Positions 34,739-47,919 of a DNA stretch of 64,000 nucleotides are shown here, piece by piece (the first letter of the stretch is position 1; every line of letters starts with the position of its first letter). Source of the DNA: an uncultured Pseudomonadales bacterium. GTDB taxonomy: Bacteria > Patescibacteriota > Microgenomatia > UBA1400 > UBA12028. The notes beneath the pieces are model-generated. The model ran no database searches. It saw nothing but the letters and a program-made list of their open reading frames with translations, and was not told where the DNA came from. The translations under genes and the position numbers were made by a program. The DNA lies in NCBI GenBank assembly GCA_964635905.1, contig CAZWPK010000003.1:66459-130458 (forward strand), in the 5' to 3' direction.

Positions 34739-35139
34739 GGTGGAGATGCCCGGATTGAACCGGGGTCCGTATATGAACCTTGCCATCGTCTACACACGTA
34801 GGTCATTCTTGATCAAGCTAGATCGGTGAACTTCCAAGCCGTATTCTAGCGTCTCCAATGCTAAATCTTTTATCGGTAGGATTGGATACGACCGACAAGT
34901 CACACTGACTGGGTTTCCACCCATTCGCTTACATCAGTGAGATAAGACGAATGAATGCTAGCTTAAGCTAATGCGTAAGCTGGTTGTTCGTTGGTGCCAA
35001 ACACGAAGTTTGCCACACGAGCGAACAAGTTGCTAAGTTTTGAGTTAGCAGTTATTGTTTTGGCTCTGTTTTACATCTTCTCTAGCCAAAGATGGTGTGC
35101 AGATGGTAAAGAGCGATACACGTCGAAACGTACATCCCC
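34739..35139 (-). ncRNA. ssrA: tmRNA (SsrA), standard one-piece form
   Basis: Minus-strand 5' end GGGGAUGUACGUUUCGACGUG (the conserved UUCGACG). The 3' end has a T-arm CCCGG-TTCAAT-CCGGG and an acceptor CATCTCC-A-CC pairing with the 5' GGGGATG. An internal ORF encodes the tag ANFVFGTNEQPAYALA followed by TAA. The 3' end abuts the smpB stop. Confidence 0.8.
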
Positions 35140-35978: not shown

Positions 35979-36065
35979 GGAGAGGTCGCATAGTGGCCTA
36001 GTGCGGAAGTCTTGAAAACTTCTGTGGGTTTACGCTCACCGTGGGTTCGAATCCCACCCTCTCCG
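35979..36065 (+). tRNA. tRNA-Ser (anticodon UGA), type II with a long variable arm
   Basis: Acceptor GGAGAGG/CCTCTCC, anticodon stem GAAGT/ACTTC with loop CUUGAAA, T-arm GTGGG-TTCGAAT-CCCAC, discriminator G. Confidence 0.8.
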
Positions 36066-37817
36066 CAATACTGAACAAACAGGCTCTAGATCAAGCATTT
36101 GCACGGATAGATCAGCATATTTCCCAGGTTGTAATCTATTTGCTGTGTCCAACATTTCTCTCTTGCCTTTTTCAACTAAAAAGTACGATTTATCCCCATC
36201 TATCAGTAATTTTCGTTCAAATACTCGTAGGTTAGAACCAAGTTTCTTTAATACATAAGTCTTTTCTTGAACCGTGCCATGCTCAAATTGGTATCTTGCG
36301 GTACTGACAAAATCAAATGTTTCCTTAGTTTGAGCGATCCACTGTTGCTGTTGAACGTCAGCTTCTTCAAGTTTCTTTTTTAGGTCTGCTTTCTTATTTG
36401 AGATAGATAATTCCTCTTCCTCGTATAGTTTTTTTCTATCACCATCGTATTCAAGATACTCAGGAGAAATGCGTATTCGAATAAGCGACTTTAACTGATC
36501 ATCCATCCGCTTATACTCTCGAAGTAGTCTCTCTTTTACTTCCGTGTCTTTTTTTTCTTCTGTCAGGTTTAACTCATGAATATACTCAAACGCCCAATTT
36601 TTAAACTCCTCTGGAATTTCAAACCTTTGTAATTCTTGATCTATTTTCCTTTCCAGATCTTTCACAGACAGACTTCCTTGAGTACAGTTTTCATGGATCT
36701 TTTTCGTACAACGGTAATGGACATACTGAAGCGTCTTAGGATGTTCCATCTCTTCCAATTTTGTATTACAAGCAGGGCATTTGCTGGTTAATTTTCCTTT
36801 ATGGAATTTGGTCTTACAGACTGGGCAGATTATTTGCCATTTTTCTTCACAAGTGATTGACCCCTGACATTCTCCGCAGATCAGCACTTGTTTATATGGA
36901 AAGTCCTTTTTTGTGTAATGAGAAGTTCTTTTTCCCGATAAACGAATTTGTATTTGCTCAAATTCTCCTTCTTTGATCATTGGTTCATGTTTTCCAGTCT
37001 CTTCTTTAATTTCCTTTTCAACCCTCCTCCTCATGAGTCTATAGTAAAAAGGATCTCTAAGTATTCCGTAGAAAGTTGTTCGACTCATGGGGCGACTTGG
37101 GTGCTTCAAGGTCTGACGTGTCTTGTATCCCCACTCGTTGTTTAGTAAATCAAAGATCTTCATAGGAGCCCCACCTCCCGCAATCATTTTTAGGGCATTT
37201 TGGATTATTGGGAAACGCTCTCGATCTGTGATAATTGTATTTTCCTTTGTTAAAGGGTTCGTATAATTCAAATACCCAGGCTTCGCAGGACCACCCCACT
37301 CTTTCCTTTCAATGAATTTCTCTCGATTGCCTCGACGAACATTCTTACTAAGATCATCAGATGATTTTTTAGTGAGAGTAAAGTCAATTCCTAGAGACAT
37401 CTTGTCATCACTGTTATTGGTAAAAATTCTCTGTGGGGTTCTAAATTCAATTAGTTTTTCCTCATCAAAAAGATAGATAAAACTCCCTGAATCCTTACTG
37501 TTTCGTGCAATTCGAGATGAATCCCAAGCTAAAACTGCATTTCCTTCTCCCATTTCAATGCGTTGAACCATTTCGTTAAAATACGTTCTCCCAATTTTAA
37601 AAGCACTTTTTGACTCTTTATACAATTCGACTATTCTCAATCCAAACCTATTCGCATACTCGGAGAGTATTTTCTCTTGATCAGGGAGTGATGCTATTTG
37701 CTTGTCCTCACTATCACTGCTCTTACGACAATAGATAAAGAATTTAATTTTTTGGAGATCAATTTCATGAGTTCGCAATGGAAAACCGCCACTTGTTAAA
37801 ATAGCGAATGAAAACAA
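36036..37817 (-). CDS. Large serine recombinase (phage/ICE-type integrase) with its 5' end interrupted by an IS30-family element
   Basis: Resolvase catalytic domain (FIYCRKSSDSEDKQIASLPDQ, LAWDSSRIARN), a recombinase domain and a Cys4 zinc ribbon (CGECQG...CPVC...CPAC). The last 10 codons are antisense to the tRNA-Ser T-arm (GWDSNPR). The first ~15 codons (..SGGFPLR..) are read out of the left IS inverted repeat, so the native N-terminus is probably displaced. Confidence 0.75.
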   Translation of the reverse strand: MFSFAILTSGGFPLRTHEIDLQKIKFFIYCRKSSDSEDKQIASLPDQEKILSEYANRFGLRIVELYKESKSAFKIGRTYFNEMVQRIEMGEGNAVLAWDSSRIARNSKDSGSFIYLFDEEKLIEFRTPQRIFTNNSDDKMSLGIDFTLTKKSSDDLSKNVRRGNREKFIERKEWGGPAKPGYLNYTNPLTKENTIITDRERFPIIQNALKMIAGGGAPMKIFDLLNNEWGYKTRQTLKHPSRPMSRTTFYGILRDPFYYRLMRRRVEKEIKEETGKHEPMIKEGEFEQIQIRLSGKRTSHYTKKDFPYKQVLICGECQGSITCEEKWQIICPVCKTKFHKGKLTSKCPACNTKLEEMEHPKTLQYVHYRCTKKIHENCTQGSLSVKDLERKIDQELQRFEIPEEFKNWAFEYIHELNLTEEKKDTEVKERLLREYKRMDDQLKSLIRIRISPEYLEYDGDRKKLYEEEELSISNKKADLKKKLEEADVQQQQWIAQTKETFDFVSTARYQFEHGTVQEKTYVLKKLGSNLRVFERKLLIDGDKSYFLVEKGKREMLDTANRLQPGKYADLSVQMLDLEPVCSVLRRGWDSNPR

Positions 37818-38791
37818 GGAAGCATTTAAGTGATCAGGAACGGGATCAGATTGCAGTCTGGAGAGCCCAAAAAACTAGTATTCGGGAGATTGCTCGGAGA
37901 CTGGGACGACATCACTCCTCCATTGAAGCAGAGCTCCAGAGGAACCGATGGGGTGAAGCATATATTGCCATCCATGCAAAGAAAGAGACGAGGAAGAGAA
38001 TGCAGACTGCTAGGAAGAAACATCCTCTAAAGGATCCTGCAACATATGCGTATGTATTGGAGAGACTCCGGTGGGGATGGAGTCCAGAAGAGATCTCTGG
38101 AAGATTGGAATTGGAGAGAGGAGAAAAGTTCTTGCATCATGAAAGTATCTACCGATTCATCTATGCCCAGAAAAACAAAGGTTTGAAGTTGTGGGAGTAC
38201 CTTCCCAGAAAACAGAAGAAAAGAAGGAAACAAACAGGGAGAAGTAGTCACAAGAGTAGGATTCCAAACAGAGTCTCCATTCACCAGAGGCCAGAGGAGA
38301 TTGAGTCAAGAGAGGTGTTTGGACATTGGGAGGGAGATTCAGTGGTGGGACTAGGAAAGAAGGAATCCATACAGAGGTAGAGAGAAAGACCAGGTTTCTT
38401 CTCGCTAAGAAGGTTGCAAAGATCGGAGCTGTGGAAACAGCTGATGCTCAGGTCCAACTGTTTGCACCACTTCCAAACAAAGCAAGGAAGACCACCACGG
38501 TGGACAATGGAAAAGAATTCACTAAACATGAACAGGTCACGATACATATGGGACTGAAGATCTATTTTGCAGATCCATATTCATCTTGGCAAAGAGGAAC
38601 CAATGAAAACACAAATGGAAGACTGAGAAGATATCTTCCCAAGAAAACCAGTTTCAAAGAATTGGAACAAACAGAGCTGGATGAGATTGTAGCAGAGATC
38701 AACAATCATCCCAGAAAGTGTTTACAATACAGAAAGCCAGTAGAAGCATTTAATCAGGAGTTAACAACTACTGGCGGTTTTCCATTGCGAA
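37772..38791 (+). mobile_element. IS30-family insertion sequence (~1020 bp) with 20-bp perfect terminal inverted repeats
   Basis: Left inverted repeat ttcgcaatggaaaaccgcca at 37772..37791, and its exact reverse complement at 38772..38791. The transposase reads out through the right repeat (..TGGFPLRM*). Confidence 0.7.
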
Positions 38792-38796
38792 TGTAG
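37808..38796 (+). pseudogene. IS30-family DDE transposase split by a -1 frameshift into two ORFs
   Basis: ORF1 37808..38380 carries the HTH and the first Asp (GHWEGDSVVG). ORF2 38326..38796 carries DNGKEF and WQRGTNENTNG. The catalytic triad is therefore split across frames, and no canonical slippery heptamer is visible in the overlap. Confidence 0.65.
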
Positions 38797-38876
38797 GAAA
38801 CTTAGTTGAGAGAATCAATATGGTATTATAGGTGATATAGAGACTACTATCTCTTTCAGTAAACAGGAGGTTTTGT

Positions 38877-39713
38877 ATGTCAGAAATTCCAAATCCACCA
38901 CCTAACCCTGGACAGAAAACACAGGCAGAAATTGATGCAGAGTACGCAGGTATTAAACCTATTATCGATGCTTCTACGGTTCCTGATTCAGTACCTTTAG
39001 CTCATCAAGAAACTGGAGCTGGGGATATATTCAAACCTGTCATTGAAATCAAGAGAGGTGAAAATCGTGAATTTGGTGAGAAGTTCCCTCCAATGCCAGA
39101 CGTTCTCTTATCAAAGGTTGATGAGATTCGTGGTGTGGAGGACTTATATCCAGTCTTAGACCTTATTCGTACGTCTAATCAAGAAGGTACATTAGTGGGT
39201 GAATATTACGATTCGCTTAAAGTTCGCATAGCCGAAAAGATGACGAGAGTATTAGTTCGAGCTGCTAAAGCCTCAACACTTGACCCAGAGATAATAGGAT
39301 TGGAAATGCGGAAGTATGCATCCTATTCTTACCTCTCTCCAGAGCAAGTTCAAACAGTAGAAGCCGCTATCCGCTCACGCTCAGAGTTTAATTTGGCAAC
39401 TGCCTCCCTTGTTGATATCCATCGAAAATATGGAACACGAGGGAACTTACAAAACGATATAGATAATATTGATGACCCTACATACTTAATGTTCATTGCA
39501 GAGTCCATAGATGACCAAATAAGAGGAGGTGGAGCTATTGGGAAGGATGGACGAAGAGAAGAAGCAAGCGCTCTTGATTCCGCAACGAAAGCGTATGGAG
39601 AAGGCATAATTTATGCAATCTCAGAGAGAATGTTGGAATTAAAAAATCCAATGCAGGCGGCAATGCGGAGAATATCTCAGAAGATGGAAAAGTACCTCCG
39701 AGATTCTAAGTAA
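38877..39713 (+). CDS. Hypothetical protein (278 aa)
   Basis: GGAGG RBS. No recognisable motifs. It lies in the AT-rich island. Confidence 0.5.
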   Translation: MSEIPNPPPNPGQKTQAEIDAEYAGIKPIIDASTVPDSVPLAHQETGAGDIFKPVIEIKRGENREFGEKFPPMPDVLLSKVDEIRGVEDLYPVLDLIRTSNQEGTLVGEYYDSLKVRIAEKMTRVLVRAAKASTLDPEIIGLEMRKYASYSYLSPEQVQTVEAAIRSRSEFNLATASLVDIHRKYGTRGNLQNDIDNIDDPTYLMFIAESIDDQIRGGGAIGKDGRREEASALDSATKAYGEGIIYAISERMLELKNPMQAAMRRISQKMEKYLRDSK

Positions 39714-39876
39714 TAAATAAGTAGCCTACTTGCTTACTAAATTCTTACTTGTTTAAATTGCAACAACCATTTCAGATGTATTTATGGTGTTCAAAGTTCT
39801 AAAATAGGTTAGAACTTCGTTCACGGTTCTCCGCCACAACTGACAGAAATAAAAACAAAGTTACATAAATAGACAA

Positions 39877-40863
39877 CTATTTTGCTAATTCTCTTTTAAT
39901 TTCAGCAATGGTCAATCGATCTTTGTCTTGTAATTTTCTGATCTTTTTAATGATGGACACCTGGTCTTGACCATATAACTGATATCCGCCTTGGGAATAC
40001 TCAGCCACTTGTAATAATCCCTCTTTTGTCCAGTGACGAATGGTTGGCACGGTTGCACCAACGAGCTCAGCCAGCTCGCCAATTTTGAGGACATTTTTCT
40101 TTTCTAACACTCTCTCTTGAGCTTTACCCTCTAAAGCTTGAAGGTAAATATCTAATGAGCGATTTATTGCTTCATACATTAGAGCGTAGTAATCCGCGAG
40201 TGAGCCTCCAAGTTGAGCCTTTTCAATACTGGTAATGTATTGCTTCCGTTCCTCTTTACGGATAATGGCTGGAGGATAACCAACTTGCATGAGTAGTAAG
40301 TTCATCAGTAAACGAGCAACTCTGCCATTCCCGTCCACAAAAGGGTGAATACTTACTAACTTGAAATGAGCATCCACGGCTACCGTCAAAGGATTGTCCA
40401 TATTCTTCTGTAACCATGAAACATACTCGCCCATGAGCTCTGGGACCTTCATGGCATTGGGCATAATAACGGTTGAACCTGCGATGCGAACCGGAACAGT
40501 GCGATATCGTCCGGCTTGGTTATCAGCGATTTTTTGGAGAATCAGCTGATGCAAATCCAAGATTGTATTCTCTGTAATATCCTGTTTTGTCGTATCAATT
40601 CGGTGAATCACCCAATCAAAGGCTTGGGCATGGTTCACTGCCTCTAAGTACTCTTGAAGGGTCTTCCCATCGACTGTGACGCCTTTTTCCACCACTAAAG
40701 CAGTTTCAGCTCTAGAGAGGGTATTCCCCTCAATAGCGTTGGACGTATACGTCAACTCAATCTTAAACCATTCACGAAGGTTCGTTACAAGATCAACCGA
40801 AAAAGGCCTGAAACCATCCAATCGTTGTTTTTTCTCCTCTAGTGTAGCCAGAATGTTTGCCAT
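39877..40863 (-). CDS. Fic (AMPylase) family protein with an N-terminal inhibitory motif and a C-terminal MerR-type HTH
   Basis: Fic active site HPFVDGNGRVARLLMN. Inhibitory [ST]xxxE[GN] motif TYTSNAIEGN near the N-terminus. The C-terminus (LKIGELAELVGATVPTIRHWTKEGLL...) resembles a MerR-family HTH. Confidence 0.75.
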   Translation of the reverse strand: MANILATLEEKKQRLDGFRPFSVDLVTNLREWFKIELTYTSNAIEGNTLSRAETALVVEKGVTVDGKTLQEYLEAVNHAQAFDWVIHRIDTTKQDITENTILDLHQLILQKIADNQAGRYRTVPVRIAGSTVIMPNAMKVPELMGEYVSWLQKNMDNPLTVAVDAHFKLVSIHPFVDGNGRVARLLMNLLLMQVGYPPAIIRKEERKQYITSIEKAQLGGSLADYYALMYEAINRSLDIYLQALEGKAQERVLEKKNVLKIGELAELVGATVPTIRHWTKEGLLQVAEYSQGGYQLYGQDQVSIIKKIRKLQDKDRLTIAEIKRELAK

Positions 40864-41279
40864 GTAATGTTAAGTGTAACGTTACACTTCATGGTTGTCA
40901 AGCCAGATATCAAGTACCTACACATCACCAATTTTAGTGGTTTTATGTCTGTGTTGTCGCAAATACGAAGACGGAAAATTCAGTTCCATGCCGTCAGTAA
41001 GGTTTTCAAAAGTTTTTTATGATTTGGCAGAGATCTCCAGGCTTTGAAGGCTGGAGGTGAATGCCTGCCCGGAGTGAAGCGGCGGTACAATGTCATGATT
41101 GATGATTCAACTCATATTGGGAGACAGATCCACTGCAGAGTTTATCGAGATTCTGTGGGAGAATGGAGCGCATGTACAAATTACAGCATAAATTGATTTT
41201 TTGCAGTAACGCTTCTCGGTAAAGTAAATAAGGTATTCACATTCCAGCACACAACTCTGGTTGTTCTACCATAGTAGCT

Positions 41280-41627
41280 ATGCACATTTCTGTTCAAATA
41301 ATCAAAAAACAAACCAACTCCACTCTCAATCGTTCTCAGAAGATGTGGTTGATCTTGATCATTGGGGTCTCTGTAGTGCATCTTATTCGGGATATCCTGC
41401 AGGAATTTGGGATACGATACTGGATTTCAACAATTCTGGTGAAGCCAGGACCACATACGAAGGCATTACTTTGGCATCCCTACAATACACTGATCATCGA
41501 GCTTTTTCTCATTCTTTGTTCACTTGTTATCCTCAAGCGCGAACGGTTTGGACGACTAGGATGGGCAACCGTCTTCGCTGTTATCGTTACCGGATTGGCC
41601 TGGGTCTACTACTGGTATTTCGTGTGA
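41280..41627 (+). CDS. Hypothetical small membrane protein
   Basis: Three hydrophobic segments. Weak call that overlaps the alternative ORF 41261..41680. Confidence 0.3.
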   Translation: MHISVQIIKKQTNSTLNRSQKMWLILIIGVSVVHLIRDILQEFGIRYWISTILVKPGPHTKALLWHPYNTLIIELFLILCSLVILKRERFGRLGWATVFAVIVTGLAWVYYWYFV

Positions 41628-44355: not shown

Positions 44356-45291
44356 TTAAGTTCGTTTCCGTTCGGCAATCCAGACTCCAGACAAGATAAG
44401 GAGCATCGCAGCAATTTCAAAACCACCGATCCTTTCTCCTAGAAGCACGACTGCCAGAGGAATAGAGATGACTGGCTGGAGATAGGTAAATAAGCCTGCT
44501 TCCGAAGCTTCAATCCCTGCTTGTCCTTTAATATATGCTGTCAGCCCGATAATTGACCCAAATACCGCTGCAAACACCACTACGATGATGACGCGTAGTG
44601 AAGTGAAATCCTGGATCATTACAGAATACAGTGAGGACACGGAAAACGATGACTCGACCAGGCTTAAGATCAAAAATGTAACAAGGCCGACGATAAAACT
44701 AATACTACTTACGAATAATTTAGGGATATGTTTAAAGGTAGATTTTGCTTTCAAGAAATAAATCACTGTAGCCAACGTGTGCACTAAAATCAGAACATTA
44801 CCGCGCATCAGTCCACCCATCGAGGGGGATAACATCGCCAAAAGTGGAGAGACAACTAAGAGAAGTGTTCCAATGATTGCCAAAAAGAGTCCCCACAACT
44901 CCCGTTTTTCCTCTTTCTCTTTGAGGAAATAGACACCTCCAAGCGTAAGTAAAATGGGTGCAGTAGTCCCGATCAAATTCGCTTCAATAGACGTTGTATA
45001 TTGCAAACCAACATATAAGACAGACAGAGCCAGTGAGGTTCCAATCAGCTCTAGCGAAACAATTGTTTTGATTGCCTGAAAAGGCATTTTTACTCGGGGG
45101 AAATAATGCCAGAGAATAGGAACTGAAAGAATGGATGCGAGTAGAAATCGATAGAAGAGGTAGCGAAAGGGTGAGGTATCCTGTAGTCCCCATTTAGCAA
45201 AGGGAAGGAGTGCTCCCCAACACATCGTGTTGATCAGCAGATAGAAGTAGGAAGTCGCTCGTAGTTTGGCTTTTTTGGAGATCACTTTCAT
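44356..45291 (-). CDS. EamA/DMT-superfamily transporter
   Basis: 311 aa with about 10 TM helices in two EamA-like repeats. Confidence 0.6.
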   Translation of the reverse strand: MKVISKKAKLRATSYFYLLINTMCWGALLPFAKWGLQDTSPFRYLFYRFLLASILSVPILWHYFPRVKMPFQAIKTIVSLELIGTSLALSVLYVGLQYTTSIEANLIGTTAPILLTLGGVYFLKEKEEKRELWGLFLAIIGTLLLVVSPLLAMLSPSMGGLMRGNVLILVHTLATVIYFLKAKSTFKHIPKLFVSSISFIVGLVTFLILSLVESSFSVSSLYSVMIQDFTSLRVIIVVVFAAVFGSIIGLTAYIKGQAGIEASEAGLFTYLQPVISIPLAVVLLGERIGGFEIAAMLLILSGVWIAERKRT

Positions 45292-45420
45292 CTACTATAC
45301 GGGATAGAGTGACCACAGGGGAAGTCTGAGACAACCAAGTCAGATAGAATCTCAAAAAGTTGCTTGTATTTGATACAATGACACCCTGTAGTAATCTCTG
45401 GAGGGGTCGCATAGTGGTTT

Positions 45421-45505
45421 AGTGCAGCGGTTTACTAAACCGCCGTAACGAAAGTTACCGAGGGTTCGAATCCCTCCCCCTCCGCAACAAAGTTGTATTT
45501 CTTAC
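45421..45505 (+). tRNA. Type II (Ser-like) tRNA with an atypical anticodon loop UUACUAA (canonical reading gives anticodon ACU)
   Basis: Acceptor GGAGGGG/CCCCTCC, long variable arm, T-arm GAGGG-TTCGAAT-CCCTC, discriminator G. Anticodon stem GCGGT/ACCGC. It is a near-copy of the downstream tRNA-Ser(GCU) with G34 changed to A. Confidence 0.6.
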
Positions 45506-47737: not shown

Positions 47738-47824
47738 GGAAGCGTCGCATAGTGGCCTAGTGCAGCGGTTTGCTAAACCGCGACCCTTAATCGGGTCTCG
47801 TGGGTTCGAATCCCACCGCTTCCG
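47738..47824 (+). tRNA. tRNA-Ser (anticodon GCU)
   Basis: Acceptor GGAAGCG/CGCTTCC, anticodon stem GCGGT/ACCGC with loop UUGCUAA, long variable arm, T-arm GTGGG-TTCGAAT-CCCAC. Confidence 0.8.
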
Positions 47825-47919
47825 CCTCTGTGCTTGATACCATCACACCCCTTAACTTTTGAATGTTTCGTTTTTTGCATTTTCTCTGTAGGATGTGACT
47901 AGTAGATCTACACACAGAT

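Follow-up and report, generated by a model that had tools for sequence, protein, structure and literature searches.

In ISfinder, the typical signature of insertion sequences (IS) of the IS30 family is a DD(33)E arrangement of the catalytic residues of the transposase. The Woesebacteria-like bacteria of the Candidate Phyla Radiation (CPR, or Patescibacteria), from which the DNA considered here derives, have small genomes. Elements of the IS30 family use a copy-out-paste-in pathway to transpose, proceeding via a circle whose ends are abutted (bioRxiv 10.1101/2023.06.07.543989, citing Kiss & Olasz 1999), and the target duplications made by the family member ISApl1 are 2 bp long (bioRxiv 10.1101/2023.06.07.543989). 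This analysis concerns one such element and the recombinase gene that it adjoins, both located in a 64-kb stretch of a Candidatus Woesebacteria-like genome (contig CAZWPK010000003.1); the whole of this stretch is referred to as the window, and all coordinates are positions in it unless a locus is named. It is very probable that an unnamed IS30-family element of 1,032-1,035 bp, which normally carries one gene for a 330-residue transposase and which has here suffered a 4-nt deletion, lies in the first codons of a large serine recombinase gene, that this gene belongs to a 5.5-kb island beside tRNA-Ser(UGA), and that the right junction of the element was rearranged at a later time.

The family assignment, which was proposed in an earlier note on this DNA, is borne out by the transposase. 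The gene is split into two open reading frames (ORFs), and the rejoined product of ORF1 and ORF2 scores 284.7 bits on the NCBIfam model for IS30-family transposases (NF033563), for which the cutoff is 80, and covers its whole length (profile positions 1-267 of 267). Membership of the IS481 or IS21 family was considered and rejected, the scores falling far under the cutoffs of the respective models. Pfam identifies an HTH_38 domain in ORF1 (6.6e-17) and an rve domain in ORF2 (2.9e-06), and the catalytic residues D177 (in GHWEGD), D234 (in DNGKEF) and E268 (in NENTNG) are spaced as D(56)D(33)E. Homologues of the transposase number about 7,900; among the matches listed, almost all are single proteins of 320-335 residues, and several are named IS30 family transposase. 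The C-terminal sequence ...GGFP[LFK]RM is conserved in the relatives P0001, P0002 and P0038. Judged by its sequence, the element is a defective copy of an unnamed member of the IS30 family, and the family itself is known.

Perfect 20-bp inverted repeats are found at 37772-37791 (TTCGCAATGGAAAACCGCCA) and 38772-38791. Within the 64-kb window the repeat has no further copy, and none of 100 dinucleotide shuffles produced a chance match to it. The extent of the element is indicated by other copies of it. Two Logan unitigs, L008 (SRR31051128) and L009 (SRR31051132), consist of the element alone, and correspond to window positions 37766-38797 (1,032 bp) with 100% and 99.8% identity, respectively. 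The alignment with L002 (GCA_017973895.1), a copy that is 86% identical and has unrelated surroundings, spans 37765-38799, and a further locus, L003 (SRR31757422), departs from the window sequence after 38797. The repeat unit of the IS is thus placed at 37766..38797 on the plus strand by the L008 and L009 unitigs and the L002 and L003 alignments; the ends of the element may lie at 37765 and 38799, which would give a length of 1,035 bp. From the ends of the two unitigs and the L002 alignment it also follows that the terminal repeats are 26 bp long and imperfect. The left repeat occupies 37766..37791 on the plus strand around the perfect core, and the right repeat occupies 38772..38797, where it encodes GGFPLRM and holds the stop codon of the transposase gene. 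The left end (CATGAGTTCGCAATGGAAAACCGCCA) and the reverse complement of the right end (CCTACATTCGCAATGGAAAACCGCCA) agree at 22 of 26 positions, the left being composed of CATGAG plus the core and the right of CCTACA plus the core. The earlier note had placed the perfect repeats exactly, and had rightly described an element bounded by repeats; its length of about 1,020 bp requires correction, the ends being 6 nt (perhaps 7-8) beyond the perfect repeats and the element 1,032-1,035 bp long.

To the left of the element lies a minus-strand ORF of 593 residues (36036-37817) that starts at a TTG codon inside the IS and exits through the left repeat (...SGGFPLRTHEIDLQ...). The encoded protein contains the Pfam domains Resolvase (PF00239, 1.9e-15), Recombinase (PF07508, 2.3e-05) and, weakly, Zn_ribbon_recom (PF13408, 0.0026), matches PHROG integrase family 95, and shares the conserved motif YCRKSSDSEDKQ with all of its homologues. 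The homologues, which reach at most 57% identity, come from Patescibacteria (Levyibacteriota, Pacebacteria and WWE3) and are large serine recombinases without a name; those of 570-620 residues with 50-57% identity cover 95-97% of the query. On these matches the protein is a predicted large serine recombinase of the integrase type.

The position of the insertion within this gene is evident from the N-termini of the homologues. In the 18 homologues inspected, 13-17 residues stand ahead of the catalytic RKSS, typically beginning M-x-x-I-D-[LI]-x-x-L-[KR]-F. In the window the sequence that is not derived from the IS starts at I19 (IDLQKIKFFIYCRKSS; IDLQKIKFF), with two-thirds of codon E18 belonging to the IS, and the element therefore occupies the place of the first 1-5 codons of the recombinase. 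By the domain matches and the homologues, the native part of the gene extends on the minus strand from I19 to the stop codon (36036..37764), with its last 31 nt antisense to tRNA-Ser; by the codon map and the homologue comparison, the remainder of the frame (37765..37817, minus strand) is an IS-derived 5′ extension. That the IS sits at the 5′ end of the recombinase gene, that the recombinase frame begins in the IS and leaves it through the left repeat, and that the N-terminus is consequently a fusion product had all been read correctly before, as the translation, the homologue starts and the codon map attest.

The codon map contains only two canonical in-frame starts for the recombinase, TTG at 37817-37815 and TTG at 37778-37776, both of which are within the IS. 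The second is used by the NCBI protein P0121 (580 residues, MRTHEIDLQ...). Starting at TTG 37778 places 17 residues before RKSS. As this number is within the range found in nature, a hybrid protein could work if it were expressed. A poor Shine-Dalgarno-like sequence, GGCGG, is found 7 nt upstream of this codon, and there is a weak hairpin followed by a T-run on the minus strand at 37807-37786. The outward IS promoter suggested in the earlier note finds no support in a consensus scan, which detected none at the left end of the IS at its threshold, but Patescibacteria promoters may differ from that consensus. Insertion would have removed or displaced the recombinase’s own start codon and upstream region, and the gene would now be either silent, with the island locked in place, or weakly expressed as a hybrid whose N-terminus, MRTHE..., is encoded by the IS. 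Apart from its start, the recombinase is by all appearances intact. Nothing but the lost start favours the suggestion that it may be decaying: the ORF has no interruption, homologues of similar length align over 95-97% of it, and the three domains and RKSS are kept.

The transposase gene itself is broken. ORF1 (37808..38380, plus strand, 190 residues) contains HTH_38 and the first catalytic Asp and ends prematurely through a frameshift; ORF2 (38326..38796, plus strand, 156 residues) is in the -1 frame, and supplies the second Asp and the Glu. Similarity of ORF2 to intact transposases starts at about 38361 (EGIHTEVERKTR...), and its C-terminus reads ...TGGFPLRM, followed by a stop codon (38794-38796) that falls within the right repeat. 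The closest relative, P0001 (330 residues, 89% amino acid identity), is a single ORF and reads ...GHWEGDSVVGLGKKEGIHTEVERKTRF... in this region. When the DNA is aligned with L002, GGAAAGAAGGA in the window is followed by a 4-nt gap and then by ATCCAT, versus GGAAAGAAGGAAGGGATTCAT in the intact relative, so that the gene is split by a 4-nt deletion at 38361..38365 (plus strand), where the P0001 protein reads GLGKKEGIHTEVERK. The same deletion is present in L001 (SRR8893623), which is 100% identical to the window over 37296-41071, in L007 (SRR31757420), with one mismatch over 36315-41071, and in L003, with one mismatch over 37182-38797 (99.94% identity) that is an independent P76L change in ORF1, as well as in L008 and L009. 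Being common to five separate read-set assemblies, the frameshift is, to all indications, a genuine 4-nt deletion.

The single-ORF organization holds for the lineage, as P0001 and the homologues listed demonstrate, and the window copy is an exception that was interrupted by a secondary deletion. The missing 4 nt were probably one unit of an ancestral GGAAGGAA tandem, the loss of which through replication slippage would give exactly the present sequence; this loss could have occurred either before or after the insertion. Divided into an ORF1 with only the helix-turn-helix (HTH) and an ORF2 with the catalytic core, the copy would be incapable of making its own full transposase. The earlier account of a frameshifted transposase that reads out through the right repeat, with GHWEGD in one frame and DNGKEF and ENTNG in the other, in an element that may be decaying, thus holds; re-examination in other assemblies found the deletion persisting in all five, and an intact single-ORF relative was found elsewhere.

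Other copies of the element were also examined for target-site duplications, and 3-bp duplications were found in L002 (GTA/GTA) and L003 (ATT/ATT). In both, the duplicated bases are set off from the 1,032-bp core by 1 nt on the left and by 2 nt on the right, which suggests an element of 1,035 bp that would make 3-bp duplications. At the same offsets the window copy has ATT on the left (37762..37764, plus strand), a candidate left duplication, versus ACT at the position expected for the right copy (38800..38802, plus strand), and no repeat of at least 3 bp occurs at any offset from 0 to 4. Locus L003, from a second strain, keeps the left junction of the window, and its right flank is unrelated from 38798 onward; this flank was not found in the window or in any compared locus. 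A unitig that stops at both repeat ends implies that the repeat has at least two different neighbours on each side, and the element thus occurs in more than one context in both the SRR31051128 and the SRR31051132 samples. Together, L003 and these unitigs point either to two or more copies in the population that have recombined with each other, or to a deletion or inversion next to the element. The window arrangement is probably the derived one; its right IS junction would not be the original partner of the insertion, having arisen through a later IS-mediated rearrangement. In the homologous islands L012 and L013 the small genes upstream of the recombinase are co-directional with it, whereas the upstream gene in the window is divergent, and this arrangement also fits a rearrangement.

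Two sequence likenesses were observed around the junctions. A short imperfect direct repeat, GAGA(A)TCAAT, flanks the IS, with one copy at 38812-38821 (15 nt beyond the right end) and the other at 37755-37763 (2 nt short of the left end). Its minus-strand reading is ATTGAT(T)CTC versus ATTGATCTC, which corresponds to the recombinase codons I-D-L, and it could be either a product of chance or a trace of rearrangement. Positions 37748-37768, at the junction of recombinase and IS, and 45271-45291, the latter covering the first codons of an EamA transporter gene, are identical at 20 of 21 nt (ATGAAA[T/G]TGATCTCCAAAAAA on the minus strand). This second likeness was set aside as probably due to chance, as 4 of the bases are the IS tip and the other 16 of 17 lie in AT-rich DNA where such agreement is compatible with chance.

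Some observations weigh against a reading in which the IS entered the first codons of the recombinase gene and was later rearranged on its right. In-silico removal of the IS leaves a stop codon immediately before ATT-GAT-CTC, namely TAA with the window flank and TGA with the L003 flank. The missing in-frame ATG is supplied by neither of these right flanks, and the native 5′ end cannot be rebuilt from them; a reconstruction of the native start from either flank was accordingly dropped. Neither an empty-site allele nor a further copy of the element was found in a genome_contigs scan with the repeat core or in metagenome_contigs scans with the recombinase 5′ junction and the repeat core; three isolated genome_contigs matches to the 20-mer core, with no transposase nearby, were dismissed as chance. 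Finally, the frameshifted unit has multiple left and multiple right contexts in two samples, a finding that would fit continued mobility as well as it fits rearrangement.

A different view of the 5′ end is that the coding sequence was never hit, and that the recombinase gene is intact, starting at a non-canonical ATT (37763-37761) with the IS just upstream, so that only the promoter or leader is disrupted. This would make sense of the stop codon found directly before the ATT after excision with either known right flank, and the 12 residues that would then precede RKSS come close to the 13 of the shortest homologue. All 18 inspected homologues, however, begin with an ATG-encoded Met located 1-5 residues upstream of the ID motif; ATT start codons are very rare, and no Shine-Dalgarno-like sequence lies ahead of this one. 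On balance an ATT start is very improbable, and an insertion into the first codons is preferred.

It has also to be considered whether the split transposase is alive. A -1 ribosomal slip at GGA_AAG (38355-38360), with tRNA-Lys re-pairing from AAG to AAA, would yield a 329-residue transposase, and the element would then be a recoding-regulated member of the IS30 family, with regulation as in the IS1 and IS3 families. ORF2 is indeed in the -1 frame, and slippage at A_AAG would give ...GLGK-EGIHTEVERK..., which is collinear with P0001 minus one Lys. The frameshifted unit is moreover an isolated 1,032-bp unitig in two samples, with at least two left and at least two right contexts and no intact variant breaking the unitig, and L003 provides a second right context. 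Recombination between copies would account for these additional contexts just as well. The closest relative retains the 4 bases and a single ORF, as is the case for essentially all of the listed homologues; the site has no canonical X_XXY_YYZ heptamer, and the 101 nt around and downstream of it (38340-38440) fold no better than shuffled sequences (z = +1.04). A programmed frameshift was dropped as the principal explanation on the grounds of the slip motif, the folding score and the single-ORF relatives, and we regard recoding as very unlikely.

A compound version is just as doubtful. In it, the deletion made the element dependent on recoding, with rare -1 slippage at GGA_AAG still yielding full-length transposase and ORF1 alone acting as an inhibitor that binds the inverted repeats, and the IS-borne TTG in the left repeat starts a hybrid, functional island recombinase. 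If it were true, recoding would account for the presence of an identical frameshifted unit in several genomic contexts. The weakest alternative, that the frameshift is a sequencing or assembly artefact in an element that really has one ORF, draws on the fact that indels in short purine-rich repeats such as GGAAGGAA are a known type of error, and is barely credible: homopolymer errors do not typically take the form of a 4-nt loss, and an identical gap in the NCBI metagenome-assembled genome and in five separately assembled Sequence Read Archive runs, of which L003 has an independent substitution and another flank, essentially refutes it. A genuine deletion in an element inserted into the first recombinase codons remains the preferred reading.

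The recombinase gene is situated at the edge of an island whose left border and attachment region is tRNA-Ser(UGA) (35979..36066, plus strand). Two syntenic relatives, L015 and L016, with about 76-90% nucleotide identity, are collinear with the window up to 36066, where they diverge, and again from 41605 onward, and have neither recombinase nor IS. The alignment with both relatives thereby defines 36067..41604 as a strain-specific island of 5.5 kb, the left border of which coincides exactly with the 3′ end of tRNA-Ser(UGA) and the right border of which is set by this synteny. The gene order shared with L015 and L016 is smpB, transfer-messenger RNA (tmRNA), a comF-like gene and tRNA-Ser, followed by nusA, infB and EamA, and one member of the cluster to which the IF-2 protein belongs bears the name Candidatus Woesebacteria; in place of the island the relatives carry an unrelated gene for a multi-pass membrane protein of 324 residues (11867-12841 in L015). 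In addition to the recombinase and the IS, the island contains genes for a 278-residue protein without a family match, a protein with a Fic domain fused to a MerR-type HTH (39877-40863) and a small membrane ORF. With a GC content of 0.37-0.41, the island is poorer in GC than its flanks, which have about 0.45.

The recombinase gene runs into the tRNA at the left border. Its stop codon (36036-36038) is inside tRNA-Ser(UGA), and the C-terminal residues ...RRGWDSNPR are an antisense reading of the T-arm of the tRNA. The same antisense overlap of the recombinase 3′ end with tRNA-Ser(UGA) is seen at three of three loci (36036-36066 in the window, 3867-3956 in L012 and 8702-8787 in L013), and the sequence ...R[RK]xx[DE]S[ND]P..., which is the T-arm translated in antisense, is found within or at the end of 12 of 18 homologues. 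The pattern suggests a Patescibacteria family of islands with large serine recombinases, which would target tRNA-Ser(UGA), with the recombinase frame running across the attachment site. A second attachment site in the form of a direct repeat of the tRNA 3′ end was not found within 36.1-41.7 kb, and the only matches were the other two tRNA-Ser genes.

Further observations were made on the island and its surroundings. The independent Logan contigs L001 (SRR8893623) and L007 (SRR31757420) both stop exactly at 41071 in the non-coding right part of the island, which suggests that this position is a point of population-level variation or the edge of a repeat. A tRNA-Ser with the anticodon ACT (A34; loop TTACTAA) is encoded at 45400-45485 on the plus strand, as well as in L015 (16727-16812) and L016 (8894-8979); it is conserved in these two syntenic relatives with about 90% nucleotide identity, and has the same anticodon stem as the paralogous tRNA-Ser(GCT) at 47738-47826. 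It is unusual for bacteria to have an A34 tRNA for the two-codon AGY box; deamination to inosine would also permit reading of the Arg codon AGA. Directly downstream of smpB, the tmRNA gene (34739-35139, minus strand) has an unusually long predicted tag of 28 residues (ANSKLSNLFARVANFVFGTNEQPAYALA), and the tag of the relatives is similar, with 29 residues.

The consequences of these findings are mainly for annotation. The two ORFs annotated as transposases are one broken IS30-family gene, and the N-terminus of the recombinase is IS sequence in both the 593- and the 580-residue versions of the protein. The element also marks a 5.5-kb tRNA-Ser island with a recombinase that is probably disabled or rewired, and a strain-level rearrangement at the IS. 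The event is of an ordinary kind, and it does not challenge the biology of IS elements as it is understood.

In comparison with known systems, the recombinase shares with the large serine recombinases of integrative elements (CcrB/CcrC, XisF and the phage integrases of PHROG 95) the order of Resolvase, Recombinase and zinc-ribbon domains, a length of about 580 residues and a position at the edge of an island beside the attachment site. It differs from them in that all named models score far below their cutoffs and its nearest relatives are the unnamed Patescibacteria proteins, at no more than 57% identity, in the overlap of its 3′ end with tRNA-Ser(UGA), and in the replacement of its 5′ end by IS sequence. 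The element has its closest counterpart in the intact relative P0001/L002 (GCA_017973895.1, contig JAEMOI010139907.1), to which it is 89% identical in amino acid and 86% in nucleotide sequence, and with which it shares the terminal sequences TCATGAG...TGTAGGAA, the transposase start and a C-terminus located within the right repeat; in contrast to the window copy, this relative has an uninterrupted ORF of 330 residues, a core of 1,036 bp, another insertion site and a perfect GTA duplication. With the IS30 family at large (IS30 of E. coli, ISApl1 and ISPpu17) the element shares a single DDE transposase with an N-terminal HTH_38, an rve core and D..D(33)E spacing, inverted repeats of about 26 bp at its ends and a length of about 1.0-1.2 kb; in the L002 and L003 copies there are also target duplications within the family's range of 2-3 bp. 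The window copy is set apart from the family by the frameshift that its 4-nt deletion causes, by the lack of an intact target duplication and by its CPR host. The annotated members on plasmids that come nearest to it, a Bifidobacterium IS30-family element and ISPpu17, have only about 41% amino acid identity, and the element is therefore a new member of the family that would receive a new IS name.

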